A DNA stretch of 64,000 nt from Candidatus Margulisiibacteriota bacterium (lineage in GTDB: Bacteria; Margulisbacteria; Termititenacia; Termititenacales; Termititenacaceae). Shown in pieces: positions 10,096 through 47,184 of this stretch; within the stretch, counting starts at the first letter, position 1; the number at the start of each line of letters is the position of its first letter. Both the position numbers and the translations under genes were made by a program. The stretch lies in assembly GCA_031274525.1 (NCBI GenBank), contig JAISQA010000025.1:1294-65293 (forward strand), in the 5' to 3' direction. The notes under the pieces are model-generated. The model was not told the DNA's origin. It saw only the letters and a list, made by a program, of their open reading frames with translations, and searched no databases.

Positions 10096-10096
10096 T

Positions 10097-14461: not shown

Positions 14462-14537
<76 letters not shown>

Positions 14538-14606: not shown

Positions 14607-16241
14607 ATGTTAATCTCGCTTTACCTTGAGAATTATGCCCTGATCAGCCAGCAGACCATTGAATTTAGCGAGGGATTCAACGTCATTACCGGCGAGACCG
14701 GCGCCGGTAAATCGATCATCGTCAACGCGCTGGCTCTCATCATGGGCGAGCGGGCCTCGACGGATTTTATCAAAGCGGGCAAACAAAGAGCGGTGCTCGA
14801 AGCCGTATTTGACATCCGCGGCCGGCAGCTGGAAGGCTATGCCGCTGAGGAAGTGCTTATTATCACCAGAGAAATATCGCTCAACGGCCGCAATCTGATC
14901 AAAATAAACCACCGCGTCGTCACCCAGAATGAGCTGAAAAAAGTCTCGCGCTATCTGATCGATATTCACGGTCAGCACCAGCATCAGCTCCTTATCGACC
15001 CGGGCAATCATCTGGAAATACTTGACCTTTTCACGCAGGCCGGACTGCGCACGGACTGCCGGCTGGCTTTTCAGGAGTACCACACGCTGAAAAAAGAACA
15101 CGATCTGCTCCTGCAAAGCCGCGATCTGCGGCAGGAAGAAAAAGACTTTCTGGGTTTTCAGCTGAGCGAGCTGGAAGCAGCGGAATTGCAGCCGCGCGAA
15201 TACACGGAACTCCAGACGGAAAAAAGCCGGCTGGATTCTTTTACGGAGATAGCCGAAGCCATTCACAGTGTGGCCGGCAAAACCGCCGACACGCAGAATG
15301 ATCTGCGTGCCAATAAACACAAGCTGGGACAGGTAGCCGCTAAAGAAACCGCCCTGCAGGCGCTGGCGGACAAAGCCGAAGCGCTGGAGCTGGATTTTGA
15401 GGATTTTCGCGAAAACCTGAGCGCTTACGCAAATCAACTGGAATTTTCGCCGGCGCGGCTGAATGAAATAAACGAGCGGCTGGATCTGCTGAACAAACTG
15501 AAACGCAAGCATCTCAAGCAGCTTGAGGCAGAAGATATCGCCGACCTGCTTATCAAAAAACGGGATCAGCTGCGGGCCCTGCTGTCCGGGCTGGAAGACA
15601 CCGACGAGCATCTGGCCGCGCTGCAAAAAAATCTGGAGCGCGCGGAAGAAACTTATCTGGCTAAGGCCGGGGAGCTATCCCGGCACCGGCAGGAAACCGC
15701 CGGTCAGCTGGAGACCCGGATCAGCGCCGCCCTGCGCGCGCTGCGTATGCCCCATGTCCAGTTCAAAATCAATTTTACACCGAGCGCCTACGCCGCGGAC
15801 GGTCTGGACGCCGTGGAATTTCTGATCTCCGCCAATGCCGGTGAACCGCTCAAGCCGCTGGCCAGAATAGCTTCCGGCGGCGAGCTTTCCCGGGTAATGC
15901 TGGCTATCCGCAAAATACTGGCCGAACACGAACAAAGCTCCTCCATGATCTTTGACGAGATAGACGCCGGTATCGGCGGCGAGACCGCGCTGGCGATCGC
16001 CGAGGCCATTCAGGCCATTGCCACCAGACATCAGGTCATCTGCATCACGCATCTGGCGCAAATCGCGGCCAGAGCCAGCTATCATCTGCGGGTGGCCAAA
16101 TCCAGCGCGGAAAACACCACGACCGTGACGGTCACTCCGCTGCGCAAAGCGGAGCGCGAGCTGGAAATCACCCGCATGCTGTCCGGAAAAATGACCGAAA
16201 GTTCCGCCGCGCACGCGCAGGAATTACTGGAGCAGCTTTAA
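14607..16241 (+). CDS. recN: DNA repair protein RecN
   Basis: MLISLYLENYALI start. Walker A GETGAGKS. Long coiled-coil middle region. C-terminal SGGELSRVMLAI signature and DEIDAGIGG Walker B. Confidence 0.9.
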   Translation: MLISLYLENYALISQQTIEFSEGFNVITGETGAGKSIIVNALALIMGERASTDFIKAGKQRAVLEAVFDIRGRQLEGYAAEEVLIITREISLNGRNLIKINHRVVTQNELKKVSRYLIDIHGQHQHQLLIDPGNHLEILDLFTQAGLRTDCRLAFQEYHTLKKEHDLLLQSRDLRQEEKDFLGFQLSELEAAELQPREYTELQTEKSRLDSFTEIAEAIHSVAGKTADTQNDLRANKHKLGQVAAKETALQALADKAEALELDFEDFRENLSAYANQLEFSPARLNEINERLDLLNKLKRKHLKQLEAEDIADLLIKKRDQLRALLSGLEDTDEHLAALQKNLERAEETYLAKAGELSRHRQETAGQLETRISAALRALRMPHVQFKINFTPSAYAADGLDAVEFLISANAGEPLKPLARIASGGELSRVMLAIRKILAEHEQSSSMIFDEIDAGIGGETALAIAEAIQAIATRHQVICITHLAQIAARASYHLRVAKSSAENTTTVTVTPLRKAERELEITRMLSGKMTESSAAHAQELLEQL

Positions 16242-17348
16242 AACTGCGCCGGCGTTTTGCGCCAGAATATTGCGGGCCGCCAGTTTTTGCCGCAGGGCCA
16301 GAAAATCCTTTTTAATTTTTCGTATTTTCTTTTTGTCGTATAAAGTCTGCCTCAGCAGTTTATACAAAGCCGGAGCATTGACCCCGCGCTGGATGCGCTC
16401 CGGCATGATCGCTTTGCCGGTCAGCATATTGGGCAGGGCTTTGTATTTCGGCACTTTCGCACCCAGCAGTCTGGACACCAGCCAGTAAGAGAACGGCGGG
16501 AATTTATAGACAGCGATGATCGGCGTGCCCAGCAAAGCCGCCTCTAATGTAATCGTCCCGGTCGAGGAGACAATAATATCCGCGGCACGCATCGCGGCGT
16601 AATTTTCCTTAAATAACACCGGAATATTTTTAACCGCCTGGAGCCGGGCGCGGCAATACGCGCTGGCCGCCACCAGGACAAACTGCTCGCGGCCGCGGGA
16701 AAGTCCGGTCATTTCCCTGAAAATCGGCAGGAGATTGTCCAGCTCCTGTTTGCGGCTGCCGGGAAAAAGCGCGACCAGCGGTTTGGCGGTGGAGAGTTTA
16801 TGTCTGCGGCGAAAAGCGGACGGGGCCACTCTGGTTTTGACGATCTCGCTCAAAGGATGGCCGTTGTACACGCTGTGCGCGCCCAGCTTCCGGTAAAATT
16901 TATGTTCGCCGGGAAAGATCGAAATTATCAGGTCGCAGAGCTCCGCCACTTTCCGGCCGCCCGCCGGCGTGCCCCAGAGCCATTCCTGTGGCGAGATATA
17001 ATACACGACCGGCAGCCCCCGGCTTTTAGCATACCGTGCCAGCGGCAGATGAAACCCCTGCCCGTCCACGCAGAGGAATAGATCAAATTTATTTTTCCGC
17101 AGATATTTTTTCGCCCGCGCCAGCGTCCGCAGATAAGCCGGCAGATGGCGCAGCGGTTCAATGATGCCCACTGTGCTGCGTTTCGTCAGGTCGGTAAAAA
17201 CCTGCACACCCTCCGCCCGCAGCGCTTCGCTGCCGATGCCGAAAAAAGCCAGTCCCCGGCGCTTTTGTTTTAAGGCCCGCACCAGACTGGCCGCGTGCAG
17301 ATCGCCGGAAGTTTCTATGGCGCTGATGAATATTCTTTTAGTCTCCAT
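16224..17348 (-). CDS. lpxB: Lipid-A-disaccharide synthase
   Basis: N-terminal IFISAIETSGDLHAASL (LpxB GT19 signature). 374 aa. Confidence 0.85.
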   Translation of the reverse strand: METKRIFISAIETSGDLHAASLVRALKQKRRGLAFFGIGSEALRAEGVQVFTDLTKRSTVGIIEPLRHLPAYLRTLARAKKYLRKNKFDLFLCVDGQGFHLPLARYAKSRGLPVVYYISPQEWLWGTPAGGRKVAELCDLIISIFPGEHKFYRKLGAHSVYNGHPLSEIVKTRVAPSAFRRRHKLSTAKPLVALFPGSRKQELDNLLPIFREMTGLSRGREQFVLVAASAYCRARLQAVKNIPVLFKENYAAMRAADIIVSSTGTITLEAALLGTPIIAVYKFPPFSYWLVSRLLGAKVPKYKALPNMLTGKAIMPERIQRGVNAPALYKLLRQTLYDKKKIRKIKKDFLALRQKLAARNILAQNAGAVLKLLQ

Positions 17349-30245: not shown

Positions 30246-31163
30246 ATGGCCGAAAAATATTCAGGGATAGCCAGAGGGAAACCGATGAACGCCAGCGATG
30301 TGGAGGGTGCGCTGGATCTCAAAGCCAATGCCAGCGAGATGACTGCCGCGCTGGCCTTGAAAGAAAACATCAGCAATAAAAAAACCAGTATATCCAGCAC
30401 CTCGGACACCGAGTATCCCACATCCAGAGCGGTGTCTACCGCGCTAGCCTTGAAAGAAAACGCCAGTAACAAAAAAACCAGCATATCCAGCACCTCGGAC
30501 ACCGAATATCCCACATCCAGAGCAGTAGCCACGGCTTTAGCGGCCAAAGCCGCGGCCAGCGACGTGAGCGCTTTACAAACGGCGGTCGGCGGCTTGCAGG
30601 CCAAACTGCCCGTGGGTACTATCCTGATGTACGACGGCACGGGCTGGGTGAATAACAGCACGCTGCCGGGCTGGTACCAATGCGACGGACAGAACGGCAC
30701 GCCGAATCTAACAGATCTGTTTATCCGGGGCGCGGCCAGCAGTGGCGGCACGGGCGGCGCGAATAGTCAGGAGATAAGCATAGGCACAAATAATTTACCG
30801 AAGCATACCCATACGCTGACCAGCACAAAGGTAACGGCCAATACAGCCGGAAATCACAAACACGGCCTGCGCAGCACCGAGCAGGATCTTGAGGAGGTGC
30901 ATGGATTTCAATGGCACCTTGTAATCGAATCCAGAAAAAATGCTATTGCGGTCAGCTGGGGTACCGGGATAATTACCGATTATTACGAAACTTTCAGGGA
31001 AACACCAGGCTCTTCAAATATGCTGGATGCCATGTCCACCACAGGCAGTCACAGCCATACAGTTTCCGGGACTACCGATGAAAACAGTTCTACGCAAAGT
31101 AAAATTACGGTGTCCACCGTGCCCGGCTATTATGCGGTGATTTACATTAAGCGCGTGGCTTAA
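30246..31163 (+). CDS. Phage tail-collar domain protein (MdpB-like / tail-fibre tip-like) with internal tandem repeat
   Basis: VGTILMYDGTGW...GWYQCDGQNGTPNLTDLFIRGA is the tail-collar signature. HTHTL, HKHGL and HSHTV are HxH motifs like Zn-binding fibre tips. Two 31-aa (93-bp) perfect-ish repeats at 30354..30539. Confidence 0.65.
   Translation: MAEKYSGIARGKPMNASDVEGALDLKANASEMTAALALKENISNKKTSISSTSDTEYPTSRAVSTALALKENASNKKTSISSTSDTEYPTSRAVATALAAKAAASDVSALQTAVGGLQAKLPVGTILMYDGTGWVNNSTLPGWYQCDGQNGTPNLTDLFIRGAASSGGTGGANSQEISIGTNNLPKHTHTLTSTKVTANTAGNHKHGLRSTEQDLEEVHGFQWHLVIESRKNAIAVSWGTGIITDYYETFRETPGSSNMLDAMSTTGSHSHTVSGTTDENSSTQSKITVSTVPGYYAVIYIKRVA
30354..30539 (+). repeat. 2 x 93-bp in-frame tandem repeat inside the MdpB-like gene
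   Basis: gccttgaaagaaaac...ccgcgcta repeated with about 8 mismatches. Encodes LALKEN(I/A)SNKKTSISSTSDTEYPTSRAV. Confidence 0.8.
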
Positions 31164-34094: not shown

Positions 34095-34169
34095 GGCCTC
34101 ATCGTCTAATGGTCAGGACACGAGATTCTCAATCTCGTAATAGGGGTTCGATTCCCCTTGAGGCTGCCA
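34095..34169 (+). tRNA. tRNA-Glu (anticodon CUC)
   Basis: GGCCTCATCGTCTAATGGTCAGGACACGAGATTCTCAATCTCGTAATAGGGGTTCGATTCCCCTTGAGGCTGCCA. Anticodon stem CGAGA/TCTCG, loop TTCTCAA, encoded CCA. Confidence 0.8.
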
Positions 34170-34243: not shown

Positions 34244-35257
34244 ATGTATAAAATACCAGAAATTACCTTTATCGACCTATTCGCCGGTATTGGCGGTATG
34301 AGAATGGCTTTTGATAAAGCTGGTTGCAAATGTGTATTTACTTCTGAATGGAATAAATATGCTCGGATAACCTATAACGAGAATTTTGGTGAACAACCTT
34401 ACGGCGATATTACCAAGATTAATGAAAATGATATTCCAGACCATGACATTCTGGTTGCCGGATTTCCCTGTCAGCCATTTTCTATTGCTGGTGTTTCTAA
34501 AAAAATCAGTCTTGGCAGAAGTCACGGTTTTTTAGATAAAACACAGGGAACTTTGTTTTTTGATGTAGCCAGGATCATTAAACAAAAAAGGCCAAAAATT
34601 GTTATGCTTGAAAATGTCAAAAATCTGGTCTCGCATGATAATGGTAATACATTTAAGACTATAAAAGATACACTGGAGTCGCTGAATTATACTGTGTCAT
34701 TCAAAATTTTGGATGGACAGCATTATGTTCCGCAACACAGAGAGCGTATCATTATTGTTGGATTAAACAGAGATACTTTCGGGAATGATATTGTATTCCA
34801 GTTCCCTGCATTGCCGAGTAAAGAATATAAGATAAAAGATATTTTAGAAAAGAAAGTTGATGTAAAATATACACTTTCTGACAAACTCTGGAAGTATTTA
34901 CAGAACTATGCCAAAAAACATCAGGAAAATGGTAATGGGTTTGGTTATGGGCTGGTTAATCTAAATAAGGTTTCCAGAACATTAAGTGCTCGTTATTATA
35001 AAGATGGTTCTGAAATTTTAATTCCACAGAGAAATAAAAATCCCCGACGACTTACACCCAGAGAATGTGCCAGATTGCAGGGATTTCCCGATACATTCAA
35101 AATAGTTGTGTCTGATACGCAGGCATATAAACAGTTTGGCAACTCAGTTGCTATGCCATTGATACACGATGTGGCAAAATCAATTGTGGACATATTAGCT
35201 TATACCAGACCGAGAAAAATACGCGAGGCTGAACCAGAACCAGTATTAGTGGGATAA
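34244..35257 (+). CDS. DNA (cytosine-5)-methyltransferase (Dcm-type)
   Basis: Motif I FAGIGG. Motif [10 protein letters not shown]. Motif VI LENVKNL. Motif [13 protein letters not shown]-terminal [13 protein letters not shown]...FGNSVAMPL. Confidence 0.9.
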
Positions 35258-35383
35258 TTATATGAATTTGAAACAGGCTTCATCTACTACACCCAAAATC
35301 AAGAAAAGGAGTCAATTCAGGGTACGGTCTGGATTTCTGGCAAATCTATACCATAATAATGAGATAATTGATCTTAATACAAT

Positions 35384-36031
35384 ATGATCGATGAAAATGT
35401 TATTTCCAGTGAAATAATAAAACATCACCGGGAATATTTCAGGGATTTTCCCTGGAGAAAAAATATTTCTCCATATAAATTATTGATTGCAGAGTTAATG
35501 CTCAGGCGGACAAAGGCCAAGCAAGTTATTCCTGTTTATAATAATTTCATAGAAAAATATCCAGATATAAATTATCTGGGTTTAGCAAGATTATCTGACA
35601 TTCAGAAAATCATCCAGCCTCTTGGTTTACACTGGCGTGCGGAAAGTTTTATTGATTCTGTAAATTATATCCAAATAAAGCATAATGGCCAATTTCCTGA
35701 TACGGAGCAAGAAATTAAAAATATTCCGGGGGTTGGTAATTATATTACCGGCGCTATATTAACAGTTTGTTTTAAAACCAAATATCCTGTAATAGACAGT
35801 AATATCGCTAGATTTATAAATAGATATTATGGACTTGGCCTGTCAGGAGAAATTAGAAGAAACAAGCAGATACTGGTAAAAGCAAATGAATTGTTTTCTA
35901 TTAAAAATACAGAAAACTTATTATTCCCTTTAGTCGATTTTACTGCACTCATTTGCAAGCCAAGAAAACCGATTTGTGAAAATTGTTTTCTGAAAGAAGA
36001 TTGTATGTATTTTCAACATTTCCTGCTGTAG
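35384..36031 (+). CDS. HhH-GPD superfamily DNA glycosylase, MutY/Mig-like (predicted T:G mismatch glycosylase), 4Fe-4S
   Basis: HhH-GPD loop IKNIPGVGNYITGAIL...VIDSNIARF with catalytic Asp and no EndoIII-type Lys. C-terminal FCL cluster CKPRKPICENCFLKEDC (C-x6-C-x2-C-x5-C). Located immediately downstream of the C5-MTase. Confidence 0.7.
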   Translation: MIDENVISSEIIKHHREYFRDFPWRKNISPYKLLIAELMLRRTKAKQVIPVYNNFIEKYPDINYLGLARLSDIQKIIQPLGLHWRAESFIDSVNYIQIKHNGQFPDTEQEIKNIPGVGNYITGAILTVCFKTKYPVIDSNIARFINRYYGLGLSGEIRRNKQILVKANELFSIKNTENLLFPLVDFTALICKPRKPICENCFLKEDCMYFQHFLL

Positions 36032-36040
36032 TCTTTAATC

Positions 36041-36090
36041 CCATTTTGCCCGCCTGCTTGGGCTTCGCCCCCAAAATTTTTCGGCGGGAC
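36041..36090. repeat. Left ~50-bp GC-rich inverted repeat (IR-L)
   Basis: Its reverse complement gtcccgccgaaaaattttgggggcgaagcccaagcaggcgggcaaaatgg matches 42817..42866 at 47/50 positions. Confidence 0.75.
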
Positions 36091-36097
36091 GGCGGGA

Positions 36098-38195
36098 CTA
36101 TGAAACCAAATTCTTTTCTAAAATTTCAAAATGCTTCGGGTCTGATTCTTTCACGATATTCAGTAAAATCTTGATTGCATCCTTGCTCTCTCTTTTGTCT
36201 TTATGCTCGATTGTGCTTGTTGGATCGGAATTATGAGAAAATTCATTGACCAACTTGTATACTTTCCCCGCGGCTACAGTACTAATTTTCTCATCAAGAT
36301 TATTGATGTTTTTGATCAATACTTCCATTTTAGATTTTTGATCGCCTGTTGTCGGTATTTTAAAATCTACAAAAATATCAAAAAATCTTCTCGCCATATT
36401 TCCTATCGTATAAAAATCCTCATATTGTGTATCTTGTTTTTCCGAAAATTCTTTGAGTTTGGCAAACAAGAAATGATATTCAGATTTATAGTTTCGTAAT
36501 GTTTTATCAAGTGTAATAATTTTTGCTTTTCTTACATCCGATTTAATAAAATTTTCTACCATGAAAAATTCGCAAGGATTTGGTTTTTCTGTCTTATTTT
36601 CGGACTCTAATTTTTCATTATCTTTTTTCGTTGAATTATTCTTATTGATAAACCATTCTTTGACCAAATTGAAAAGTTGAAAATTGTGTGTGGAAATAAA
36701 AAGTTGCCCGACTTCCTTGAAATGTGTGTTTATCATTGAAAAACAGTGCTAAATGAAATTTGAATCAAAGCTAGAAATTGGATCGTCAATAAAAATAATT
36801 CCTTTTGATTTATCAAAATCGCCTTCACCGACCTTAACAACAAAATATGAAAAAGCGATTGCGGTTTTCTCTCCTTCACTCAAATTTTTTGCTGGCTTTC
36901 CGTCTCTCTTTATCGTATAGCCTTTGTTGTCTCCGTCCAATGCAAGCGCTATTTCTTTTCTGCCAAAAAATCCTTCTAGCTGTTTATTGATAGCTATAAT
37001 CGCTTTGCCTATATTTGAAGTTTGGTTTTCAAGTTCTGCAATGTCGGAATTATTTTTATTAATCGCATCAAGGGCTTCTTTTTCATTTTTTAATGATTCT
37101 TCCAAATCGGCTCCCATTTTTTTATAGTCCTGACCTGCCAAGGCAGTCGCGATTGAATTCAATTCGAGTTTCTCGCGAGCACTTGAAACCTCATTTGCAT
37201 GATTTTTTGCTTTTTCATTATGCTCATTGATAATTTTGTTCAATTCCAAAATTACGCTGTTGCAAGAAGACAAAAAATCCACTGGTTGTGTAGGACTTGA
37301 AACAACTACAAGCGGATTGTCATATTTTTCTTGAAGCGATTTTAGCGCTTCTTCGATCCAAGTATTTATTTTCTTGATAACTTCGTTAAGTTTCTTTGCC
37401 TGACTTGCGTATTTATCTTTTAGATCGGGGTAAAGATCATCGTTTTTTGTCGCAATTTCTAATTGTCTTACTTTCAAAATTTCACTTTTCAGGTTCGTGA
37501 TTGTATTTTGTAAGTCCTCATAGTCTTTGCTGAGCAGTCTGTGTTTTACCTGCCTCGCTTTTGCTTATTGCTTCGTATTTTTTCTTATCTTCGGCAGATA
37601 AGAGTTTGTCGGTAAAATTATCAATGCCAATAGTATTGATTTTGTTTTCAGCTTTTGTCTTGTTGTATGACTTGTCAAAAAGGATGTTTGCAATTTCTCG
37701 CCCCAAACCAGTCAGAAAAGTATTTTTTGTTTCTTCTTTTGTCGATTTATCTTTTTTTGACTGTTCGTATGTTTTGCCAGGAGTGATTTTATCCAGTTTC
37801 AACTGTTCAAGCCGTTTTTTGCTCTCAATATCTTCTTTGCTTACATAAATAATCGGATTGCATGAATCCAAAGGATCAAAAGAAATATTTTCATCTATAA
37901 AATCTTGGTTGAAAACCTTGATCGGCAAAACATTGGTGGCAACATCTGTATTTTTTACGGTGGTTCCGTCATCTGTTTTTATTTCGAATTCGCCATTTTC
38001 GGGATACTGTTTGAATTTGTCTTTATCGTAAGTACATTTTTTCTCGCAACTCGCAAAAACACGGGAAATGGTTGTTTTTCCGCTTCTATTCCAGCCATAG
38101 ATCAAATTGAATCTTTTAAAATCAGAAAGCTCTGTTTTCCAAATAAAATTATGAAATATGCCGTAATCTTTGAGTTTTGAGATTTTAGTAATCAT
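36098..38195 (-). pseudogene. AAA_13-family ABC-type ATPase (PrrC/RloC-like coiled-coil ATPase), disrupted by one frameshift (~37520-37560) and one in-frame TAG (36749..36751)
   Basis: Track ORFs 37518..38195 (Walker A YGWNRSGKTT), 36749..37477 (coiled coil, LSEGEKTAIAFSYF signature, Walker B/D-loop IIFIDDPISSFDSNFI then TAG) and 36098..36736 (H-loop QLFISTHN) are collinear pieces of one ~680-aa gene. Pieces 2 and 3 are in the same frame across the TAG. Confidence 0.7.
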
Positions 38196-38203
38196 GTTAA
38201 AAA

Positions 38204-39721
38204 CTAGGCAGTTACCTCATTTAAAGTCGTTTTCATCTCAAGGCTATTAACAAATTTATCAATATCCGAGATTCTCACTTCCAAACTATCTTTTTTGATA
38301 AAATCAAAATAACGTTCAGTATCAATAAAAGATTTTGGCGAGATAAACACGGAATATGATTTTGTGCCTCTTTTGACATATTCTTCAAGATGGCGATGTA
38401 TGGAAAACGACTCTCTGATATGTTGTTGTGTTCCAGTAAGTAAAGTTACTTCAACCAAAACTGTGTCTTTTTCTTCTAAACATTCAATATCGGGACTTCC
38501 GCCAGATGCAAAACTTGTTGGCAGTCCTTCATCGTCGGATATAAAGTTAGGTTTCACGATAACATTCGGTAATTTTTTAAGGATGGCCAAGGAAGTCAAA
38601 AATTCTAATCGCAAGGGCTGTTCAATAACTTTCAAAATATCATCACTTGAAGATTTTTTCTGTGCTAAATTAAACAGTTCGTTTTTAATAGATTCCCAAG
38701 CATAATGATCAACCCATTTTCCCAATTCCGCTTTTGTAGTTTTCGCTGGGGCTTTAAATACGGTAAGTGTTGAGATTAAATCGTGATCAACTTGTCCGAT
38801 GTACTCAAAAAATTCTTTTTCCGTTTCAAATTCTTTATAGGAAATATAATTTTTCAAAATATAATTTACGGCGGTAGATTCTTTTGTGTTTATATCTATA
38901 AAACGACCACCGCCACGCAAAGAAAGTAAACCAGTTAAACGCATTTTTCGTATAAAATCGTCAGGGTAATCACCGAGAATTGAATTATCATCTCGCTTTG
39001 TTTCGTTTAGCAATTTATAGCAAAGATCCAAAATCACTTCATCGCTCGGCGTATAACCATGTTTTTTGCGTAATTTTTTGATTTCTCGATATAAACTTTC
39101 GGCATTATCATTTTGCCAACACAGCAACAGAGGTATTTCTGATCTGGATATACCAGCCCTCTTGTATGCTGGGTCATTATTCAAAAGTTTTATGGTTTGT
39201 ATAAGTAAAATAAGTGGAACATTTTTATTTAAAACGCGACGAAATGGATTTTGGCGTTGATATTTCGCAAAAGCATTTGCAAAAACCATTAACTCATTTT
39301 CTGGCTTTTCCTTATCCAATAACATTTTACCGCTTTCGGAAAATTTTATTTCTTCATTTTGCCAATACCAAACAAAGCCAAGTTCTTTAGCAATTTTGAA
39401 CCAAGTATCAAACCGCGATGGCCAACCTTTTTCAAAACCCGCTTCTTTATGGCTTTGTGGATTGTCGGAAAATACCTTTTCGGTTTCAGTTTCGCTCAAT
39501 TCAATTTCATTCTTCCGTTTATCTTTTATAGCCGAAGACACTTTCATCGGCTGATATAATCCTTTTTGAATTAAAGATTTGGCGACTTTATCAATAATTT
39601 CGTTAGTTAAAATTTCGCCGTCATATTCCGCAAGCACAGTCAGAAAATCCTTCAATCGTTCAGGATTTCTCATTGTCGTTGTAAATAGTAATGGTTTGTA
39701 TTCAGATTGTCGTTTATTCAT
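38204..39721 (-). CDS. Type IIS restriction endonuclease, AlwI family (N.BstNBI/PleI/MlyI-like)
   Basis: C-terminal catalytic region ...SPDIECLEEKDTVLVEVTLLTGTQQHIRESFSIHRHLEEY...YSVFISPKSFIDT parallels N.BstNBI ...PDMEIIYEDFIVLGEVTTSKGATQFKMESEPVTRHYL...YCLFIAPEINKNT. 505 aa. Confidence 0.7.
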   Translation of the reverse strand: MNKRQSEYKPLLFTTTMRNPERLKDFLTVLAEYDGEILTNEIIDKVAKSLIQKGLYQPMKVSSAIKDKRKNEIELSETETEKVFSDNPQSHKEAGFEKGWPSRFDTWFKIAKELGFVWYWQNEEIKFSESGKMLLDKEKPENELMVFANAFAKYQRQNPFRRVLNKNVPLILLIQTIKLLNNDPAYKRAGISRSEIPLLLCWQNDNAESLYREIKKLRKKHGYTPSDEVILDLCYKLLNETKRDDNSILGDYPDDFIRKMRLTGLLSLRGGGRFIDINTKESTAVNYILKNYISYKEFETEKEFFEYIGQVDHDLISTLTVFKAPAKTTKAELGKWVDHYAWESIKNELFNLAQKKSSSDDILKVIEQPLRLEFLTSLAILKKLPNVIVKPNFISDDEGLPTSFASGGSPDIECLEEKDTVLVEVTLLTGTQQHIRESFSIHRHLEEYVKRGTKSYSVFISPKSFIDTERYFDFIKKDSLEVRISDIDKFVNSLEMKTTLNEVTA

Positions 39722-39725
39722 AAGT

Positions 39726-40631
39726 TTAATAGTTAGTAATCAAAACTTCCTTAATTATCTTTTTGCCGTTGTTATGATAATTAATGTAGTTGCTTTCTAT
39801 TTTGTGCACCTTATATTTTTTCATCCATTCCAGCAGTATATCATTTTTACTTCCATTATAATGAGTAACATTTGATAGGGCAAATTTAACGCCTTTCTTG
39901 TCTAAAACATCAATCATTTTTAATAAATCGGCTTCCGATTTTTGATTCCACAATTTATTATATTCGCTGGCAGATATTAAATATGGAGGATCTAAATATA
40001 CAAAATCATTTTTTAAATATTTTTTGTCTGAAAAAAACTTTTTAAAACCTTTGGAGGTTATAGATATTTTTTTATCCTGAACAAAATCAAAATAGCCATT
40101 CAAGGCATTAACTACATTTTTATTAAAATCAACATTACCAACAGGCAAATTAAATTTACCCCCGCCATTAAATCGCAACATTCTATTAAATCCATAAATA
40201 AGTAGAATATACAAAATTAGGGGGTCATTTTTCTGATAATTATTTACACATAATCTCAATTTATCGTATCCATCTTTATTAAATCTTGCGTAATAAGTTT
40301 TTTTAAATTCCTTTTTTAACGAATCGGGAACAATATCTTTTTTGTATGAATGCGAAAATTTATATTTGTGGATTATTCTTTCAGCATCCTTAAAAAATTT
40401 TTCTGGATTTTTTGAGCTGGCAATTAGAAGTGTATGGATATTGATCAGATGCTTATCTATGTCATTGAGAAAATATTTTTTTGCTTCAATATTCAAAAAT
40501 ACCGTGCCTCCACCGACAAAAGGTTCATAAAAATTATTTATTTCTTTGGGAAATAAATTTACCAGTTGTTTCATCAGCTTGTATTTATCGCCGACATAAA
40601 ACAGAGGCGATCTTTTTATTTTATTACTCAT
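39726..40631 (-). CDS. N6-adenine DNA methyltransferase, D12 (Dam) class - M1
   Basis: FYVGDKYK...EPFVGGGTVF motif I. DPPY motif IV (VYLDPPYL). Overlaps the upstream MTase by 4 nt and precedes the REase gene. Confidence 0.85.
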   Translation of the reverse strand: MSNKIKRSPLFYVGDKYKLMKQLVNLFPKEINNFYEPFVGGGTVFLNIEAKKYFLNDIDKHLINIHTLLIASSKNPEKFFKDAERIIHKYKFSHSYKKDIVPDSLKKEFKKTYYARFNKDGYDKLRLCVNNYQKNDPLILYILLIYGFNRMLRFNGGGKFNLPVGNVDFNKNVVNALNGYFDFVQDKKISITSKGFKKFFSDKKYLKNDFVYLDPPYLISASEYNKLWNQKSEADLLKMIDVLDKKGVKFALSNVTHYNGSKNDILLEWMKKYKVHKIESNYINYHNNGKKIIKEVLITNY

Positions 40632-42436
40632 ATTTTTGCTTTCGTTACAAACAAGTATTCTTTGTGATTATTAAAATTAGTATTGCCAGCATTAAAGTGT
40701 CTATAATTTTTTTCAAAAACTTTGGTTGGTCCTTTCTTTTGCAGAATCTGCTCAATCTCTTGGAGTGTGATTTTATTTTTTGAGGAATTACTTTTTGAAT
40801 CGTAAGTGTTATTGTATGAAACGACCAAATATTTAGCGTCAAGATCTCTCGCGAGTTCCGCAAATTTATCTTTGGCGTTAGCTCGGCAGTAGTCGCTCAT
40901 ATTTTCTGGCTCTGGCTTTAATGCTACGCCGAAAAGTTTTGGGTTATCCCATTTAGTCAAAGTTTCAAGTACATGATAAAACCTGCTATACTGCCTTGAA
41001 TTGTAAGGTGGGTCAATATAAACGACATCAGCATTTATTTTTTTTGCCAGATCATTTGTATCTTCTTGGAAAATTGATATTTCTTGCGTGTCTATTGGGT
41101 CAATCGGTTTCATAAAAAAACTATCATTGATAAATTCCTTTTTGAAATAAGCATCAAAATGTCCAACCGTATTGGCGATTTTATCGGCGGTATAAAGCAA
41201 CGAAGCGATTAATATGTAATATTCTCGTTCGGTTAAATTTTTTTTATTTTTTTCTATATTTTCGCGAATGAAGCCGATAATTTTTGCTGAATTTTTGCTG
41301 AAAAATTTACCACCAAAATTTTTGGAAAAATAATTTTCCTCCAAGTCGTCGCCATAAATATTATTATAGCTTTTTATAATATTATCTATTTTATTTTTAT
41401 CCCATGCCTCGTTTCCGAAAAAAGCTCGATATATCGCATAATTTGAATGTAGAAAGTCGTTCAATAAAATCTTTTCAAAGTGTTTGGTTGCAACGGCGGA
41501 TACAACACCAGTCCCCGCAAAAATATCCGCAAATGAATTTCCTTTACATTCTTTGTTAATTATGGAAAAAATCCACTCAATCAATTTATGTTTATTTCCG
41601 ATATATCTGCGATTATGTAATTGGAGATGATTTTCTTTCACCTGTGGAATATAAAAATAATTTTCTCGGATTTTTTCGGCGGCTATTTCATAGGATGGTC
41701 GTTCGGTTTCAAACATGGCAAAAAGAGTACCCTGTATTCCGTCTGCGACATAATCAATGTTTGCTTTTTGTTTATTTAATTTTTCGTAAAAGCTGTAATG
41801 ATTATTTTGAGAAATGATAATAAAATCAATAACTGGTATTCCCATTATTTCGCCAGCCTGTATGATTTTTTCAATAATTTGATTGTCTTTTTCGCTTGGT
41901 GAAAAATCGCCCGAAGGGTGATTATGAACCAAAACAACACTGGCGGCGTTTAATTCCGTTGCAGGATAAAAAATTTCTCTCGGATGTAGTAGTGCCTTAT
42001 CTAAAAGACCGATACTCACAATTTCTTTTTTTAACAAAACATTTCGTGCGTTTAAATAAAGACAAACTAAATGTTCTTTTTTCTTGTCTCTTAAATCATA
42101 AGTGAGAGATAAAATATCTTGAGAATTTTTTATAACAATTTCGTTGATTTTGTTTTCGTCGTAAAATCTTTTTACCAATGAAATTGCGGAAGCAATTTGC
42201 AATGCTTTTGCCTGTCCGATTCCTGAAATTTCTAAAAGATTATCAACAGTTATATTCAAAAAGTTTTTACCAAATTTTCTGATGATATTTTCAGAAAGTT
42301 GTCTAACATTTTTCCCTTTGATTCCACTACCCAAAAGAATTGCCAAAAGATCACTTTTTAAAAGTGCGTCAGCCCCTTTTTGTAAAAACCGTTCTCTTGG
42401 GCGATCTATTTTGGGAATATCTTTTATTTTTGTCAT
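40628..42436 (-). CDS. Fusion protein: N-terminal RadC-like JAB domain (HhH + JAMM) joined to C-terminal D12-class N6-adenine DNA methyltransferase - M2
   Basis: Residues 1-220 have DRPRERF...LLAILLGSGIKGKNV...GIGQAKALQIASA plus VLVHNHPSGDFSPSEKDNQIT (RadC/JAB). Residues ~270-602 have RRYIGNKHKL...ADIFAGTG and VYIDPPYN (Dam-type). Confidence 0.75.
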   Translation of the reverse strand: MTKIKDIPKIDRPRERFLQKGADALLKSDLLAILLGSGIKGKNVRQLSENIIRKFGKNFLNITVDNLLEISGIGQAKALQIASAISLVKRFYDENKINEIVIKNSQDILSLTYDLRDKKKEHLVCLYLNARNVLLKKEIVSIGLLDKALLHPREIFYPATELNAASVVLVHNHPSGDFSPSEKDNQIIEKIIQAGEIMGIPVIDFIIISQNNHYSFYEKLNKQKANIDYVADGIQGTLFAMFETERPSYEIAAEKIRENYFYIPQVKENHLQLHNRRYIGNKHKLIEWIFSIINKECKGNSFADIFAGTGVVSAVATKHFEKILLNDFLHSNYAIYRAFFGNEAWDKNKIDNIIKSYNNIYGDDLEENYFSKNFGGKFFSKNSAKIIGFIRENIEKNKKNLTEREYYILIASLLYTADKIANTVGHFDAYFKKEFINDSFFMKPIDPIDTQEISIFQEDTNDLAKKINADVVYIDPPYNSRQYSRFYHVLETLTKWDNPKLFGVALKPEPENMSDYCRANAKDKFAELARDLDAKYLVVSYNNTYDSKSNSSKNKITLQEIEQILQKKGPTKVFEKNYRHFNAGNTNFNNHKEYLFVTKAKI

Positions 42437-42443
42437 ATCCTGT

Positions 42444-42650
42444 TTATTTAATTAAATCCTCGATTGTAACGCCAAGTGCTTTCGCTAATTTTGCCATGAT
42501 AAGTACGGACGGCTTTTTAATTACATTACTCTCAATTTTTGTCAGAGTAGTATATTTAACGCCTGATTTTTTGGCAAAATCTTCCTGCGATAAGCCTATC
42601 TTACCTCGATATTTCTTTATATTTTCTCCAATGTTTATTTCCGTTGCCAT
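42444..42650 (-). CDS. Controller (C) protein, XRE-family HTH regulator of the R-M operon
   Basis: 68 aa. ...IKKYRGKIGLSQEDFAKKSGVKYTTLTKIESN... is a classic C-protein HTH. First gene of the R-M operon. Confidence 0.75.
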   Translation of the reverse strand: MATEINIGENIKKYRGKIGLSQEDFAKKSGVKYTTLTKIESNVIKKPSVLIMAKLAKALGVTIEDLIK

Positions 42651-42676
42651 AATTTCAATTATTTGATAGTATTATT

Positions 42677-42694
42677 ATGAAGTGATATACTTTC
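42677..42694 (-). promoter_or_regulatory. Possible C-box-like imperfect palindrome upstream of the C gene
   Basis: TGAA-n-ATAT-n-TTCA symmetry (tgaagtgatatactttca) about 30 nt upstream of the C start. Confidence 0.2.
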
Positions 42695-42816
42695 AATATA
42701 ATGATACCAAATTTTAAGAATATGAGCAAATAAATAAAGGGAGTTCCTTTGATATAACGCGCGCACGGGTGGGTGGGGCAAGCGTTATGCTTCTTTTATC
42801 TCCTCTTTTGTTTTCT

Positions 42817-42866
42817 GTCCCGCCGAAAAGTTTTGGGGGCGAAGCCCAAGCAAGCGGGCAAAAAGG
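42817..42866. repeat. Right ~50-bp GC-rich inverted repeat (IR-R)
   Basis: gtcccgccgaaaagttttgggggcgaagcccaagcaagcgggcaaaaagg; the inverted partner is at 36041..36090. Confidence 0.75.
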
Positions 42867-43103
42867 AAGGGGGTTGGGGGGAATTCCGCTTTTTCTTTGC
42901 GAAATCAAATTGCGGACAGCCCCGCCACCTGTCTGAATACCTGGAAGGCAGAACCCGCAGAAAAATACTTTTTTCATTAAAAGAAGAAAAAATCGGGCAC
43001 GCGCAAAATGAAAAGAGCAAAGAGTATTTTGCTGTGGTGTGGTGAGCTTGTCAAGCAGTGGCGGGGCTGGCTTCCTTAGTGGGGGTTTTGCTCAAAGAAT
43101 GTT

Positions 43104-43136
43104 CGAACTTCGTCCAAAAAATACCGCGCCACGCGA
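43104..43136 (-). terminator. Rho-independent terminator downstream of tRNA-Ser
   Basis: Perfect 9-bp stem gcgccacgc-gaa-gcgtggcgc followed on the minus strand by TATTTTTTGG. Confidence 0.6.
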
Positions 43137-43211
43137 AGCGTGGCGCTGACTGCGCGCGTGTTTCCTTGCGCACGCAGGCGTCGCTCGCGCATTGGCGCGA
43201 GCGGAGAGGGC

Positions 43212-43296
43212 GAGATTCGAACTCGCGGTACCTTGCGGTACACAACATTTCCAATGTTGCACCATCGGCCACTCGGACACCTCTCCGTAAAGAAAG
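43212..43296 (-). tRNA. tRNA-Ser (anticodon GGA)
   Basis: Reverse complement reads GGAGAGGTGTCCGAGTGGCCGATGGTGCAACATTGGAAATGTTGTGTACCGCAAGGTACCGCGAGTTCGAATCTCGCCCTCTCCG. Long variable arm. Anticodon loop TTGGAAA. CCA is not encoded. Confidence 0.85.
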
Positions 43297-45211: not shown

Positions 45212-45967
45212 TCAATATTCGGCGCCATGCGGCGCGGCATTGCGAAATTCTGCTCTGAGCCGTTTTTCTTCAGTCAGCGTTTTAGCCTGCAGTTCGTCAG
45301 CGCGTCCCAGCACAGCCCTTAACTCTTTAGCGAGATCCTTTCTTTTGTCTGCGTTAAAGGCCTTGATTTTTCCGCGCAGAGCGTGGTAAATCCATCTATA
45401 CAGTCTATCTTCCGGGGCAGAATGGTCTCTTTTGTTTTTCGGTCTTCTTTTATTTTCTTCCACCCAGTCAATCAGCTCTGCCAGATTGCGCTCCTGATTG
45501 ACCACATCCTGCGTGCGGGTCACATCAACGCCCTGCTCTGCCAGCTGCTCCAGAATCTGCGGGTCGGATTTTCGCTCATAGAACCACAAATAGTACGGCA
45601 CTTCGTCAGCATTAACTTTACCCGGCATCCGGTCATGTTCCTGAAAAAAAACCACAAATCTCTCCAGCGCCGCCTTGCGCTGCATAGCCAGAATAGTCCG
45701 GTCAAAATCGACTCCGGCGGCGGCCAGCGCGGCCATAACATCCGCATATTGCTTCTTTCTCTTGAACCAGCTGCGAATAGGCTGTTTGCTGTGCGGCAAG
45801 ACTTCGCCGTTTTCTTTATACGCAGCCACAAACTCCTGTTTGCGTTTTTCCAGCTGCGCGTAATCCCACTCCCGGTTATCGGCCCAGCTGGTATATATTT
45901 TCTTTCCGTCTTTGTAGACAATATTCATTGTATTAAATATTTCGTAAGTTCCGGCCAATTGTTGCAT
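45212..45967 (-). CDS. Helicase-associated (HA) domain repeat protein, hypothetical
   Basis: Three ~60-aa repeats with a W...F...Y/H..G..P...W pattern (for example WDYAQLEKRKQEFVAAYKENGEVLP and LIDWVEENKRRPKNKRDHSAPEDRLYRWI). Confidence 0.35.
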   Translation of the reverse strand: MQQLAGTYEIFNTMNIVYKDGKKIYTSWADNREWDYAQLEKRKQEFVAAYKENGEVLPHSKQPIRSWFKRKKQYADVMAALAAAGVDFDRTILAMQRKAALERFVVFFQEHDRMPGKVNADEVPYYLWFYERKSDPQILEQLAEQGVDVTRTQDVVNQERNLAELIDWVEENKRRPKNKRDHSAPEDRLYRWIYHALRGKIKAFNADKRKDLAKELRAVLGRADELQAKTLTEEKRLRAEFRNAAPHGAEY

Positions 45968-45992: not shown

Positions 45993-46188
45993 CCTGAAAA
46001 TCAGCTCACGCGAACTGCCGGGCTGCAATTAACAGCCTGTCATTATATAAAGTATCTGTATTAAAGGAGTTTACTTTTTTATGAAGGTCATCTCACGCTG
46101 ACTTCCGTGTTACAATTAGCAGCCTGTCATTATACAAAGTATCAGTATTAAAGGAGTCTGCTTTTTTATGAAGGTCATTGGCATCACC
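45993..46188 (+). repeat. 2 x 98-bp tandem direct repeat (~88% identity) spanning the RBS and start codon of the Mur ligase gene
   Basis: Unit ctcacgc...attaaaggagt.t.cttttttATGAAGGTCAT at 45993 and again at 46091. Copy 1 gives a 6-codon ORF (MKVISR*); copy 2 starts the real gene. Confidence 0.75.
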
Positions 46189-47184
46189 GGCACCAACGGT
46201 AAGACCACCACCACGCATATAGTCTGTGAAATACTCCAAAAAGCCGGTTATAAAGCCGCTAAAATCGGCACCATCACCAACCGCCTGACCACGCCGTCGC
46301 CCTGGGAGCTGGCGGAGATATTTGAACGCGAGCGGCAAAAAGGCACGGAATATCTGGTCATGGAAGTGTCCTCGCACGGCATTCATCAGGATCGGGTCAA
46401 GGGTATTTTTTTTCATGTCAAAGCCCTCACCAATATCACGCGCGATCATCTGGATTATCACAAAACTTTCCGGGCCTATAAAAAAGTAAAATACGGCTGG
46501 CTGCGGCGCGGACACGGCATAAAAATAACCCCGCGGCTCTGGCACAAAGAAAAAATTGATTTTGCGCAGCCGTTCAGCGGTAAATTCAACGAGCACAATT
46601 TACAGACCGCGCTGGCTATACTCAAGTCCTTAAATATACTGCCGGAGCCGCAGCTAAAAAAACTTTTTGCCTGTCTGTCCCCTGTTCCCGGCCGTTTTGA
46701 GGTCATCGCCCGCAGGCCGTTTATGGTCATCGTGGACTATGCCCACACGCCGGACGGCGTGGAAAATCTGCTCAATGCCGTGCTGGCCCTGCGCAGGAAA
46801 CAGGGCTCCGGCCGGATCATCACGGTCTTCGGCTGCGGCGGCGACCGCGACAGGGGCAAGCGTCCCAAAATGGGCCGGCTGGTTTTGCGCAAAAGCGATA
46901 TTTGCGTGGTGACTTCCGACAATCCGCGCACGGAAAATCCCGCTGCAATCATTCAAGACATTTTAACGGGCATGAAACAAAATTTTTTCACCAGAGCCAA
47001 ACAAATTAAGATTGAGGCTGACCGCGGACGGGCTATCGCCCAGGCTATGGCGCTGGCCGACCCGGGCGATTTTGTGGTGCTGGCCGGCAAAGGCCATGAG
47101 ACCTATCAGGTGATCGGCACCGCCAGACATCATTTTGACGATCATGAGGAAGCGCAAAAGGCGCTGGAATTATGCCTCAAATAA
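46168..47184 (+). CDS. MurE-like Mur ligase family protein lacking the N-terminal UDP-binding domain
   Basis: Begins directly at the ATP-binding P-loop GITGTNGKTTT. ...VMEVSSHGIHQDRV...TNITRDHLDYHKT... and C-terminal DYAHTPDGV...TVFGCGGDRDRGKRPKMG...TSDNPRTENP...AGKGHE are MurE signatures. 338 aa versus about 490 for MurE. Confidence 0.65.
   Translation: MKVIGITGTNGKTTTTHIVCEILQKAGYKAAKIGTITNRLTTPSPWELAEIFERERQKGTEYLVMEVSSHGIHQDRVKGIFFHVKALTNITRDHLDYHKTFRAYKKVKYGWLRRGHGIKITPRLWHKEKIDFAQPFSGKFNEHNLQTALAILKSLNILPEPQLKKLFACLSPVPGRFEVIARRPFMVIVDYAHTPDGVENLLNAVLALRRKQGSGRIITVFGCGGDRDRGKRPKMGRLVLRKSDICVVTSDNPRTENPAAIIQDILTGMKQNFFTRAKQIKIEADRGRAIAQAMALADPGDFVVLAGKGHETYQVIGTARHHFDDHEEAQKALELCLK

Follow-up and report, generated by a model that had tools for sequence, protein, structure and literature searches.

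A restriction-modification cassette between long inverted end modules in a Margulisbacteria genome belongs to a family of defence cassettes found in several phyla

An imported restriction-modification cassette and its ends

The window, the whole 64-kb stretch of DNA analysed here, derives from a Margulisbacteria metagenome-assembled genome (MAG). It contains a variable interval between host tRNA-Glu(ctc) and tRNA-Ser(gga) genes (Table 1), a hotspot between convergent tRNA genes. The restriction-modification (R-M) cassette within this interval is polar, with the promoter and controller protein first, followed by the methylases, the endonuclease and the AAA_13 gene; small HTH genes likewise head the cassettes of loci L071, L056 and L198. 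The promoter is sigma-70-like (TTGCTC-17-TATCAT, 42729-42701) and lies in the conserved leader, whose motif GCTTGCCCCACCC was present at one end only in 10 of 11 paired cassettes of the first locus set and, in the window, at the right end only. Over 6.8 kb the cassette shares 88-90% DNA identity with a Nomurabacteria contig (L004), and it has blocks in common with L041, L193, L133, L122 and L143. The R-M genes (38204..42436) are intact, type IIS-like and 94-95% identical to those of L004 at the amino-acid level. The AAA_13 gene is broken: relative to the intact 784-aa gene of L004, it has lost 257 nt and acquired a stop at codon 568.

Table 1. Features of the variable interval and its borders (positions in the window).
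Feature	Position	Strand	Remarks
Host tRNA-Glu(ctc)	34095..34169	+	Left limit of variable interval
Dcm, C5 methylase	34244-35257	+	Pfam
HhH-GPD/EndoIII-type glycosylase	35384-36031	+	Pfam
Left end piece	36041..36097	+	Inner core only, profile positions ~337-398; GGCGGGAC tandem duplicate
AAA_13 pseudogene (RloC/PrrC-like ATPase)	36098..38195	-	Three ORF fragments, Pfam matches to successive parts of PF13166
AlwI-family endonuclease	38204-39721	-	Pfam, NCBIfam
D12 methylase	39726-40631	-	Pfam, NCBIfam
RadC-like/D12 methylase fusion	40628-42436	-	Pfam, NCBIfam
HTH_3 controller (C) protein, 68 aa	42444..42650	-	First gene of operon
Conserved "P-end" leader	42651..42816	-	Motif GCTTGCCCCACCC at 42783-42771
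Right 50-nt arm	42817..42866	-	Inner core of right end module
Right end module, nearly full length	42817..43127	-	Profile positions 2-256 and 321-387
Right-module hairpin	42951-42929	-	
Right-module long hairpin	43037-42955	-	
Right-module helix	43074-43058 with 42928-42914	-	
Putative tRNA-Ser-like relic at outer end of right module	about 43030-43127	-	
Host tRNA-Ser(gga)	43201..43286	-	3' end towards right module

A preliminary description of this DNA had reported GC-rich, host-like inverted repeats of about 50 bp, 94% identical, around 6.8 kb of AT-rich foreign DNA that held no transposase. The repeats were borne out: 36041-36090 (+) and 42817-42866 (-), each 50 nt long and 94% complementary to the other, agree at 47 of 50 positions across a spacer of 6726 nt, where no 50-nt inverted repeat is expected by chance. 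Within the 64 kb, a 29-mer searched with up to 3 mismatches matched only these two arms, as did a 17-mer with up to 2, while shuffled sequences yielded 0.00 and 0.04 matches, respectively. The foreign character of the cargo likewise stands, given its GC content of 0.32 and its identity to L004, and neither a transposase nor an integrase was found between the arms. The likeness of the repeats to the host holds for GC content (0.60 in the arms, 0.53-0.55 in the host flanks) and fails for sequence, which is absent from related host genomes.

The 50-mer is the inner core (~65 nt) of an end module that reaches ~400 nt. A core containing TTGGGCTTCGCCCCCAAAA is present at both ends of the cassette, where profile search placed inward-facing inverted cores at 36040-36101 (+) and 42883-42817 (-). 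The left repeat truly extends over 36041-36097, since its inner end carries a tandem duplicate of GGCGGGAC. This core directly touches the stop codon of AAA_13, the last cargo gene ("T-end"), and similarity to six loci (L004, L009, L010, L018, L032 and L041) begins exactly at 36041; core-only ends are common elsewhere, for example in L071, L032 and L006. The conserved sequence of the element extends further out on the right, as far as 43127, where the alignments of more than 15 loci stop, and 42866 is therefore not an element boundary. The right module lacks one ~65-nt hairpin, as in L045 and L046. With a nearly full right module and a left module reduced to its core, the element spans 36041-43127. 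Its right end lies 74 nt from the 3' end of the convergent tRNA-Ser(gga) at 43201, behind which a host-type hairpin is conserved with Termititenax to about 43176. The 50-nt repeats are thus the inner tips of long inverted end-pieces of an imported R-M cassette.

Host relatives keep the tRNA-Glu/tRNA-Ser interval without any module, and the module was absent from three related Margulisbacteria or Termititenax loci. The interval measures 1.25 kb in Termititenax (L196) and holds a 5.1-kb type-I-like R-M system in L075, another Margulisbacteria locus; this system is 74-76% identical to module-flanked cargo elsewhere, and no module was detectable at L075 itself. The preliminary description had placed the Dcm-Mig module outside the repeat pair, in agreement with our map, in which Dcm and the glycosylase occupy an AT-rich stretch outside the cassette (34244..36031, GC 0.34), possibly of separate origin. 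This gene pair has no relatives among the about 190 cassette loci, and neither a duplicated tRNA-Glu 3' end nor an att duplication was found near it. Assembly of the island in at least two steps, as suggested earlier, is plausible.

One set of ends around many defence operons

A 19-base piece of the repeat occurs in more than 190 public loci (72 genome loci and at least 120 metagenome loci), mostly from Patescibacteria (CPR) MAGs, and profile search recovered 219 cores in 187 loci. All 32 two-core loci carry inward-facing inverted pairs separated by 2-8.1 kb, none in tandem. The DNA between them is AT-rich (2-8 kb), forms a one-directional operon in 30 of the 32 and consists mostly of genes for R-M or other defence; R-M types I-IV predominate among the cargo families, which also include SMODS, AAA_21, UvrD and HerA. 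Module sequence is conserved across loci whose cargo differs wholly, and modules with a discrete outer boundary adjoin more than 50 different flanks. These data define a large family, in groundwater bacteria of several phyla, in which one set of conserved ends surrounds a wide range of defence operons; it is found mainly in Patescibacteria and also inserted in chromosomes of other phyla. The window cassette belongs to this family: its cores are paired and inward-facing, its cargo is polar and that cargo is homologous to other members. Of the origins first proposed for the repeats, the ends of a non-autonomous mobile cassette therefore fit best, with unrelated cargo bracketed in 32 of 32 two-copy loci, cargo and ends recurring in other phyla and similarity to six independent loci stopping exactly at 36041.

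Hairpins abound in the end module, the outermost 100 nt of which looks like a decayed tRNA-Ser. Compared with four tRNA-Ser genes, the tip gave z = 5.0 for one and 0.2-1.7 for the other three; it was not called as a tRNA by Rfam or ARAGORN. Rfam 15 covariance models (E up to 1) found only tRNAs in the window island, L003, L069 and L071. Compensatory changes preserve the hairpins; in one 17-bp stem, for instance, five or more pairs have switched from AT to GC. In two helices, non-Watson-Crick pairs are mostly G-T on the strand that reads from cargo to outside (119 versus 15 and 31 versus 3 on the other strand).

Association with tRNA-Ser genes and a serine recombinase

About 24 of the 78 modules with an outer boundary (about 30%) abut a 1.8-kb unit that has 130-nt inverted ends, encodes a large serine recombinase (Resolvase, Recombinase and Zn_ribbon_recom domains) and is placed between a genuine tRNA-Ser and the module. 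Across the junctions, the sequence is tRNA-Ser...CCGCCA|ATTTTCAC...GTGAAAAT|TGGCGGTG...module, and modules adjoin tRNA-Ser in L003, L069, L071, L121, L148, L189 and L198-L201. In the reciprocal comparison, five of five genes for recombinase homologues on long contigs abut or overlap tRNA-Ser, and a module lies on the gene's other side in four of the five. The protein is weakly CcrB/XisF-like; it scores far under the Ccr cut-offs (101 bits against 900) and is therefore not a Ccr. Both P-ends (6) and non-P ends (7) adjoin the unit, the recombinase gene is found in both orientations and at least five unrelated cargos occur with one and the same unit (85-93% DNA identity). About two thirds of the modules with an outer boundary have neither recombinase nor tRNA-Ser alongside, and many of these come after terminator-like hairpins of unrelated genes. 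Many metagenomes also contain the unit alone on a contig of ~1.8-2.0 kb; possibly it is an element in its own right for which the tRNA-like junction is only a target. In the window, neither a recombinase nor a remnant of the unit was found, including by tblastn with the L189 recombinase, and the loci yielded no excision product, circular junction or clean empty site. By this evidence from sequence, the family appears linked to tRNA-Ser and a serine recombinase by association.

We consider it probable that the window element is a non-autonomous, decayed member of a cassette family that targets tRNA-Ser and is linked to this recombinase, its movement being deduced from the arrangement of the loci. 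Full members would be integrative elements whose large serine recombinase would target tRNA-Ser genes at their 3' end. The module's outer tip, ending in ...CACCGCCA, would be a tRNA-Ser-like relic, and a circular form would carry two identical junctions of relic and recombinase unit in inverted orientation. Integration could then proceed via either junction, so that the recombinase gene and the cargo would each be found in both orientations. The window copy occupies the canonical place, adjoining a convergent tRNA-Ser. Since it has no recombinase, a truncated left module and one broken gene, it is best read as a stranded, non-autonomous and decaying copy, which nevertheless retains intact R-M genes.

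A more speculative extension, which we regard as rather doubtful, is that the family is a natural "cassette carrier" with two layers of recombination, an integron-like capture system for defence operons that operates across phyla and is built from a serine recombinase and tRNA-derived structured DNA. In the first layer, the recombinase would insert, flip or exchange the cargo arc either way through the two inverted tRNA-Ser-like junctions, doing in nature what engineered cassette exchange does with inverted sites. In the second, the sharply bounded 65-nt core, with its variable short repeats of the CGGCGGGAC type, would serve as an attC-like site for the capture of new operons.

Alternative routes and known systems

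A possible, though clearly less probable, alternative to recombinase-linked integration is cassette exchange by homologous recombination, in which modules of 65-400 nt would act as portable homology arms in competent cells, with no dedicated recombinase; an exchanged cassette would enter in either orientation because the arms are inverted. The conservation of modules around differing cargo, the sharing of an AAA_13 block by cassettes with different R-M systems and the different cargos on one recombinase-unit backbone all agree with such exchange. Saccharibacteria are reportedly naturally competent (PMC10187176). The R-M system of L075 lies at the equivalent locus, and an older cassette could therefore have provided homology, but L075 lacks a detectable module. 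Exchange also leaves unexplained how modules with a discrete outer boundary first came to lie at more than 50 different flanks, and the 50 nt that the window arms have in common are short for efficient recombination.

It is unlikely that the modules serve mainly as RNA or single-stranded structures with a tRNA-like 3' end. In that role they could insulate a toxic R-M operon, terminate it or process its 3' end, and their inversion would simply follow from the need for one on either side. The compensatory changes and the G-T excess speak for this function, as does a divergent promoter-like site directed into the right module, but DNA hairpins would be conserved likewise and the strand asymmetry is based on few inherited sites. 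No Rfam family matched. No U-run follows the main stem on either strand and folding z-scores were unremarkable (-1.8 to +1.1), which likewise gives no support to shared terminators, an option of the preliminary description, as the primary role. Mobility and sharp boundaries would remain unaccounted for.

Quite unlikely, too, is a non-autonomous inverted-repeat transposon whose 65-nt core is recognised by a trans-acting transposase. The imperfect terminal inverted repeats without an internal transposase are of this kind; many core-only ends begin near profile position 330-337 beside unrelated flanks, and outer flanks often lie just past terminator hairpins, a preference known for some elements. 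However, no transposase was found among the recurrent protein clusters or top Pfam families in or beside the about 190 loci, nor one whose own element bears matching ends. The ends are much longer and more structured than usual transposase sites. No direct duplication was found at 36041/43127, where the left end is truncated, nor does any family member have two unique outer flanks, so that no target-site duplication is demonstrable. Host REP-type dispersed repeats, as first suggested, or chance terminators common to the flanks are very improbable, since despite the host-like GC content and a weak 5-bp terminator match (36058-36074) the repeat occurs twice in 64 kb and nowhere in related host genomes, has one or two exact 19-mer copies in each of two complete chromosomes and is always paired around cargo in two-core loci.

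Among the closest described parallels are the "transposon-like" R-M units of Furuta, Abe and Kobayashi (2010), which lie between long, imperfect inverted repeats of similar size (65 bp, 60/65 identical) with 8-bp target duplications and no internal transposase, and for which mobilisation in trans was likewise raised (PMC2853133). Unlike those isolated cases, one conserved end module here, up to 400 nt long and full of hairpins, with a tRNA-like tip, serves very many cargos across phyla and is associated with tRNA-Ser and a serine recombinase, with no target duplication seen.

As in integron gene cassettes, many unrelated, often defence, cargos are joined to a conserved structured recombination element. 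Integron cassettes carry one attC each, in direct orientation, in arrays beside intI, whereas here solitary cassettes with their own promoter lie between two inverted copies without intI. An integron gene cassette was rejected, as pairs are always inverted and never tandem and the repeat contains no attC-type core sites. Mobile insertion cassettes and cargo-bearing MITE-like elements also hold passenger genes between inverted repeats without a transposase, but their ends derive from a known IS whose transposase acts in trans, and no matching IS or transposase was found here. In Neisseria, minimal mobile elements exchange different cassettes, often R-M, between conserved host-gene flanks, and engineered recombinase-mediated cassette exchange, a laboratory design, uses inverted sites to accept either orientation without excision; both resemble the present family in placing different cassettes between conserved flanks, exchange here being an analogy. 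Staphylococcal cassette chromosome (SCC) elements bring cargo, often defence genes, to one conserved chromosomal site via large serine recombinases, and recombinase-less cassettes are found beside autonomous ones. The present family resembles SCC and ccr-less pseudo-SCC elements (PMC10055296, PMC6222049) in its defence cargo, its members without a recombinase and its weakly CcrB/XisF-like enzyme; it differs in using the tRNA-Ser 3' end and long inverted modules rather than rlmH and short direct repeats. Tycheposons of Prochlorococcus are likewise cargo islands at tRNA hotspots, a minority with large serine recombinases; most have tyrosine recombinases, often with replication genes, and the portion of the preprint available to us makes no mention of inverted end modules (bioRxiv 10.1101/2020.12.28.424599).

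The conserved ends provide a search handle, in that any sequence between two inward-facing cores is a candidate defence operon. Several cargos, among them the 1226-aa and 860-aa proteins of L012, match no Pfam family, and the handle could be used to mine new immune systems from CPR bacteria, which to our knowledge largely lack CRISPR. Through the 88-90% identical cassettes of Nomurabacteria and Margulisbacteria, the family also attests to a recent passage of DNA between CPR bacteria and phyla that are free-living or symbiotic. If the link to the recombinase is true, it would represent a small serine integrase system that works in either orientation and is directed at tRNA-Ser genes, a target that every bacterium offers, and would be attractive for engineering the genomes of uncultivated lineages.

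Layout of the inverted pair in the window

The repeat search returned a single long inverted pair of such quality across the entire window, with arms of 50 nt each (36041-36090 and 42817-42866) that are 94% complementary and lie 6726 nt apart. Probes derived from the arm, a 29-mer allowing up to three mismatches and a 17-mer allowing up to two, matched the window only at the two arms, with shuffles giving 0.00 and 0.04 matches, respectively. The inverted repeat claimed in the preliminary description is thus borne out, as is the absence of a transposase from the cassette, since neither a transposase nor a recombinase was found among the genes annotated between the arms. The surrounding interval, from tRNA-Glu(ctc) to tRNA-Ser(gga), has a GC content of 30-36%, and its flanks 53-55%.

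Features of the tRNA-Glu to tRNA-Ser interval
Feature	Position	Strand	Remark
tRNA-Glu(ctc)	34095-34169	+	left limit of interval
Dcm (C5 methylase)	34244-35257	+	Pfam
HhH-GPD glycosylase	35384-36031	+	Pfam
Left arm	36041-36097	+	
AAA_13, three split ORFs	36098-38195	-	Pfam
AlwI-family endonuclease	38204-39721	-	Pfam
D12 methylase	39726-40631	-	Pfam
RadC-like/D12 methylase fusion	40628-42436	-	Pfam
68-aa HTH controller protein	42444-42650	-	
Right arm	42817-42866	-	
tRNA-Ser(gga)	43201-43286	-	right limit of interval

The arms are the inner tips of a conserved end module that can extend to ~400 nt and whose inner ~65 nt we call the core. The left arm is a core-only end, and the right arm belongs to a near-full module extending to 43127, from which one hairpin is missing, as it is in the compared loci L045 and L046. 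Because the alignments of six loci start exactly at 36041 and those of more than 15 stop at 43127, we assign the element to 36041-43127, which shifts the edge previously placed at 42866.

A separate feature of the cassette is a full RadC-like JAB domain, with its UPF0758 N-terminal domain, fused to the first methylase (508-2316 in locus L004); it is an unusual partner for a restriction-modification (R-M) methylase, and the fusion is kept at 94% amino acid identity across two phyla. Elsewhere in the window, 7.5 kb lie between the copies of an exact 33-nt direct repeat (6147-6179 and 13662-13694), the second of which runs into the 5′ end of tRNA-Pro(cgg) (13668-13743). This stretch includes a portal gene of phage type (PF12236, 8509-10095) and, at 12563-13588, a tyrosine integrase; region 6147-13694 resembles a satellite, or the remains of a prophage, inserted at tRNA-Pro. 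Two tandem duplications were also detected, one within ORF 30246-31163 (30331-30516, 93 nt twice, 87% identical) and one spanning the non-coding DNA that separates ORF 45212-45967 from ORF 46168-47184 (45995-46168, 87 nt twice, 84% identical).

Distribution, structure and cargo of the family

When a single genome of each species was scanned with the central 19-mer TTGGGCTTCGCCCCCAAAA, 72 loci came up, against ~4 expected by chance, with L005 and L024 being likely chance matches. The non-chance loci were nearly all Patescibacteria/CPR MAGs; the repeat does not belong to the host DNA, and its description as host-like is not supported. The 19-mer was also present in complete chromosomes of Thermodesulfobacteriota (L009) and Fidelibacterota (L071), at one or two exact copies per complete chromosome, and a metagenome scan added at least 120 further loci. 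A profile of the full element, built from aligned copies and run against all collected loci, identified 219 cores across 187 loci among the matches listed. In this same set all 32 loci with two cores held them as inward-facing inverted pairs around cargo, spaced 2.0-8.1 kb apart, and no tandem or back-to-back cores were found in any profile-searched locus.

Because two-core loci are always inverted pairs and complete chromosomes hold so few exact copies, the family does not behave as the REP-like host repeat that had been considered, and the refuting condition set in the preliminary description, a REP-type repeat spread over hundreds of intergenic regions and unconnected with insertions, does not hold. 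Arrangement and copy number likewise rule out an integron attC site and a composite transposon. Transcription terminators shared by the flanks, another early proposal, were not borne out either, a simple terminator being ruled out. The same inverted ends around cargo instead support the proposed non-autonomous mobile cassette. Searches of PLSDB plasmids, INPHARED phages and IMG/VR gave zero matches to the module, and so provide no evidence of a plasmid or phage vehicle.

Conservation among aligned copies reaches far past 50 nt, to a consensus of ~400 nt. Read from outside to inside, the module begins at a discrete boundary, (TG)GCGGTGTTTTTTGA...GTTCGAAC, followed by a long-range helix, formed by GAAGCCAGCCCCGCCAC and GTGGCGGGGCTGGCCTC, around an ~80-nt hairpin and a second hairpin that is small and variable. 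Inward of this helix stand two 15-17-bp hairpins with C-rich loops and then the core, TTTTTGCCCGCCTGC-TTGGGCTTCGCCCCCAA-AACTTTTCGGCGGGAC(GGCGGGAC), which stops sharply at the cargo start. Many copies are deletion variants, their outer and inner parts joined at short direct repeats, and ~20 are core-only, beginning at about profile position 330-337 beside unrelated DNA. Contigs that stop ~100-140 nt inside the module do not mark physical DNA ends; they fit repeat assembly breaks at ~k-1 for k = 141.

The hairpins are kept through compensatory substitutions, with five pairs of one stem exchanging A-T and G-C in 7-23 of ~80 distinct copies. Among the non-Watson-Crick pairs of two helices, G-T on the cargo-to-outside strand versus the opposite strand numbered 119 vs 15 and 31 vs 3, an asymmetry that derives from few inherited sites. 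In L025 (4974-5067) one 15-bp hairpin has its C-rich loop of 23 nt in flipped orientation (GGAAGGGGGTTGGGGGGAAGGAA), a small hairpin-mediated inversion. No Rfam family matches the module. On the cargo-to-outside strand its outer 100 nt align to tRNA-Ser through the acceptor, D-arm, long variable arm, GTTCGAA and ...CACCGCCA, with z = 5.0 against one CPR tRNA-Ser and 0.2-1.7 against three others; from this alignment we tentatively regard the outer tip as a tRNA-Ser relic.

The cassettes have a polarity. A conserved leader (...GCTTGCCCCACCC...) and then a promoter mark one end and one only (the P-end) in the window and in 10 of the first set's 11 paired loci, and at the opposite end the core adjoins the terminal gene's stop codon. 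Cargo forms a one-directional operon in 30 of 32 cases and has a GC content of 33-39% (11 cassettes measured). Pfam and PADLOC scans of 24 cargo proteins individually, and of another 91 taken together, identified mostly R-M types I-IV, together with AAA_13, AAA_21, SMODS, UvrD and HerA. Non-defence genes turned up occasionally (an NRPS, an AlkD-like protein), and several large proteins matched nothing; the recurrent families in these scans included no transposase or integrase.

The window cargo is a mosaic. Its AAA_13 block and left core recur behind type-I-like systems in L041, L193, L133 and L097, and its AlwI block is shared with L004, L122 and L143. Compared with L004 (a 7228-nt contig from Nomurabacteria), the window cassette shows 88-90% DNA identity; its three R-M proteins are full length, at 94-95% identity, and its AAA_13 gene has lost 257 nt and is interrupted by an early stop codon. 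As a member of the family, the window copy is stranded and in part decayed but keeps its R-M system intact.

Association with tRNA-Ser and a serine recombinase

In many loci the modules adjoin tRNA-Ser genes, of four anticodons. Past its outer boundary the module abuts, in ~24 of 78 cases, a ~1.79-kb unit with inverted ends of 124-134 nt. The product of this unit is a large serine recombinase with Resolvase, Recombinase and Zn_ribbon_recom domains; it is weakly CcrB/XisF-like, scoring far under the family cut-offs, and L107, L121 (2607-4157), L135, L189 (850-2439) and L191 carry intact copies of its gene. Wherever both sides are visible, the unit is flanked precisely by the 3′ end of a real tRNA-Ser and by the tRNA-like tip of the module, with junctions reading ...CTCCGCCA|ATTTTCAC...GTGAAAAT|TGGCGGTG....

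A reciprocal test started from recombinase homologues in the protein database and examined the copies on long contigs. The recombinase gene abutted or overlapped tRNA-Ser in all five, and a module lay on its other side in four, in one case accompanied by an entire R-M cassette whose leading gene encodes a controller protein. Between the unit's inverted ends the gene occurs in both orientations, and the module end beside it was the P-end six times and the non-P end seven times. On a 1.06-Mb CPR contig (L198, 6594-6868), a truncated module lies upstream of a tRNA-Ser(tga) carrying the recombinase unit; its tRNA-like relic runs in the same direction as the tRNA, which a simple integration model does not predict. 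A 1482-nt inverted repeat of 100% identity at both contig ends of L120 (1-1482 and 8613-10094), spanning module, recombinase unit and flank, was set aside as a probable assembly artefact, the assembly path having probably re-used one flank via the inverted module.

The position of the unit between tRNA-Ser and module, the two orientations of the recombinase and the adjacency of both P and non-P ends led us to infer a circular element with two arcs, one recombinase-bearing and one cargo-bearing. The arcs would be divided by two identical relic/unit junctions, inverted relative to each other, and either junction could recombine with the tRNA-Ser 3′ end. This model is weakened by the two thirds of modules that have no adjacent recombinase, many modules sitting instead after terminator-like hairpins of unrelated genes. 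It is weakened further by the window, where neither a recombinase nor a remnant was found, the 74-nt tRNA-Ser-module spacer included, and by the unit often assembling alone on contigs of ~1.8-2.0 kb. Close homologues on such contigs (protein matches P0131, P0134, P0135, P0141, P0151, P0159, P0164 and P0178, for example) suggest that the unit exists as an independent multi-copy element. A serine recombinase acting at tRNA-Ser is the best-supported candidate for the route of movement, its rivals being homologous exchange of cassettes and an unseen transposase.

R-M units with imperfect flanking inverted repeats and no transposase were described by Furuta et al. (PMC2853133) as 'transposon-like' mobile forms, so a flanked R-M unit is of a known kind. 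No account of this module or family was found in the literature searched, an absence that is not proof of novelty. Beyond Furuta et al. (PMC2853133), SCC elements and integrons are the use of one conserved, structured, tRNA-like module (up to 400 nt) for very many cross-phylum cargos, the strict inverted pairing of ends, and the linkage to tRNA-Ser and to a serine recombinase; the tycheposon passages compared do not cover these features either.

The tRNA-Glu/tRNA-Ser interval in relatives

Exact-match queries with three window proteins gave no hit, and the host was recognised by homology: the UDP-glucose dehydrogenase beside the cassette is 100% identical to a Candidatus Margulisbacteria MAG protein and 81-84% identical to those of Termititenax relatives. 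Synteny holds on both sides of the interval, which argues against a chimeric assembly. In T. persephonae (L196), convergent tRNA-Glu(+) and tRNA-Ser(gga)(-) enclose 1.25 kb of host-like GC content with no module; convergent tRNAs are therefore ancestral even where the cassette is lacking, ruling out inversion of the host tRNA-Ser by insertion, an idea raised by the opposite strand of tRNA-Ser in L073. In one related member of the Margulisbacteria (L075), the interval holds a 5.1-kb type-I-like R-M system (11429-16549; 835, 635 and 190 aa) with no detectable module, ~50% GC and 74-76% DNA identity to module-flanked cargo of L041, L056 and L053; it may be an older, ameliorated cassette. The lack of a module in both relatives speaks against a host-derived repeat.

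A third interval, in L073, is rearranged, with tRNA-Ser on the opposite strand relative to the other relatives. Here (11425-11650) a second tRNA-Glu 3′ end (…GATTCCTCTTGGGGCTGCCA) lies ~200 nt downstream of tRNA-Glu, just before tRNA-Ser, and looks like an att scar with local rearrangement. A duplicated tRNA-Glu 3′ end was also sought in the window as an att site for the methylase-glycosylase pair outside the arms (Dcm-Mig), and none was found. Taken together, the comparison of L196, L075 and L073 shows the tRNA-Glu/tRNA-Ser interval to be a long-standing hotspot and the window cassette a recent arrival.
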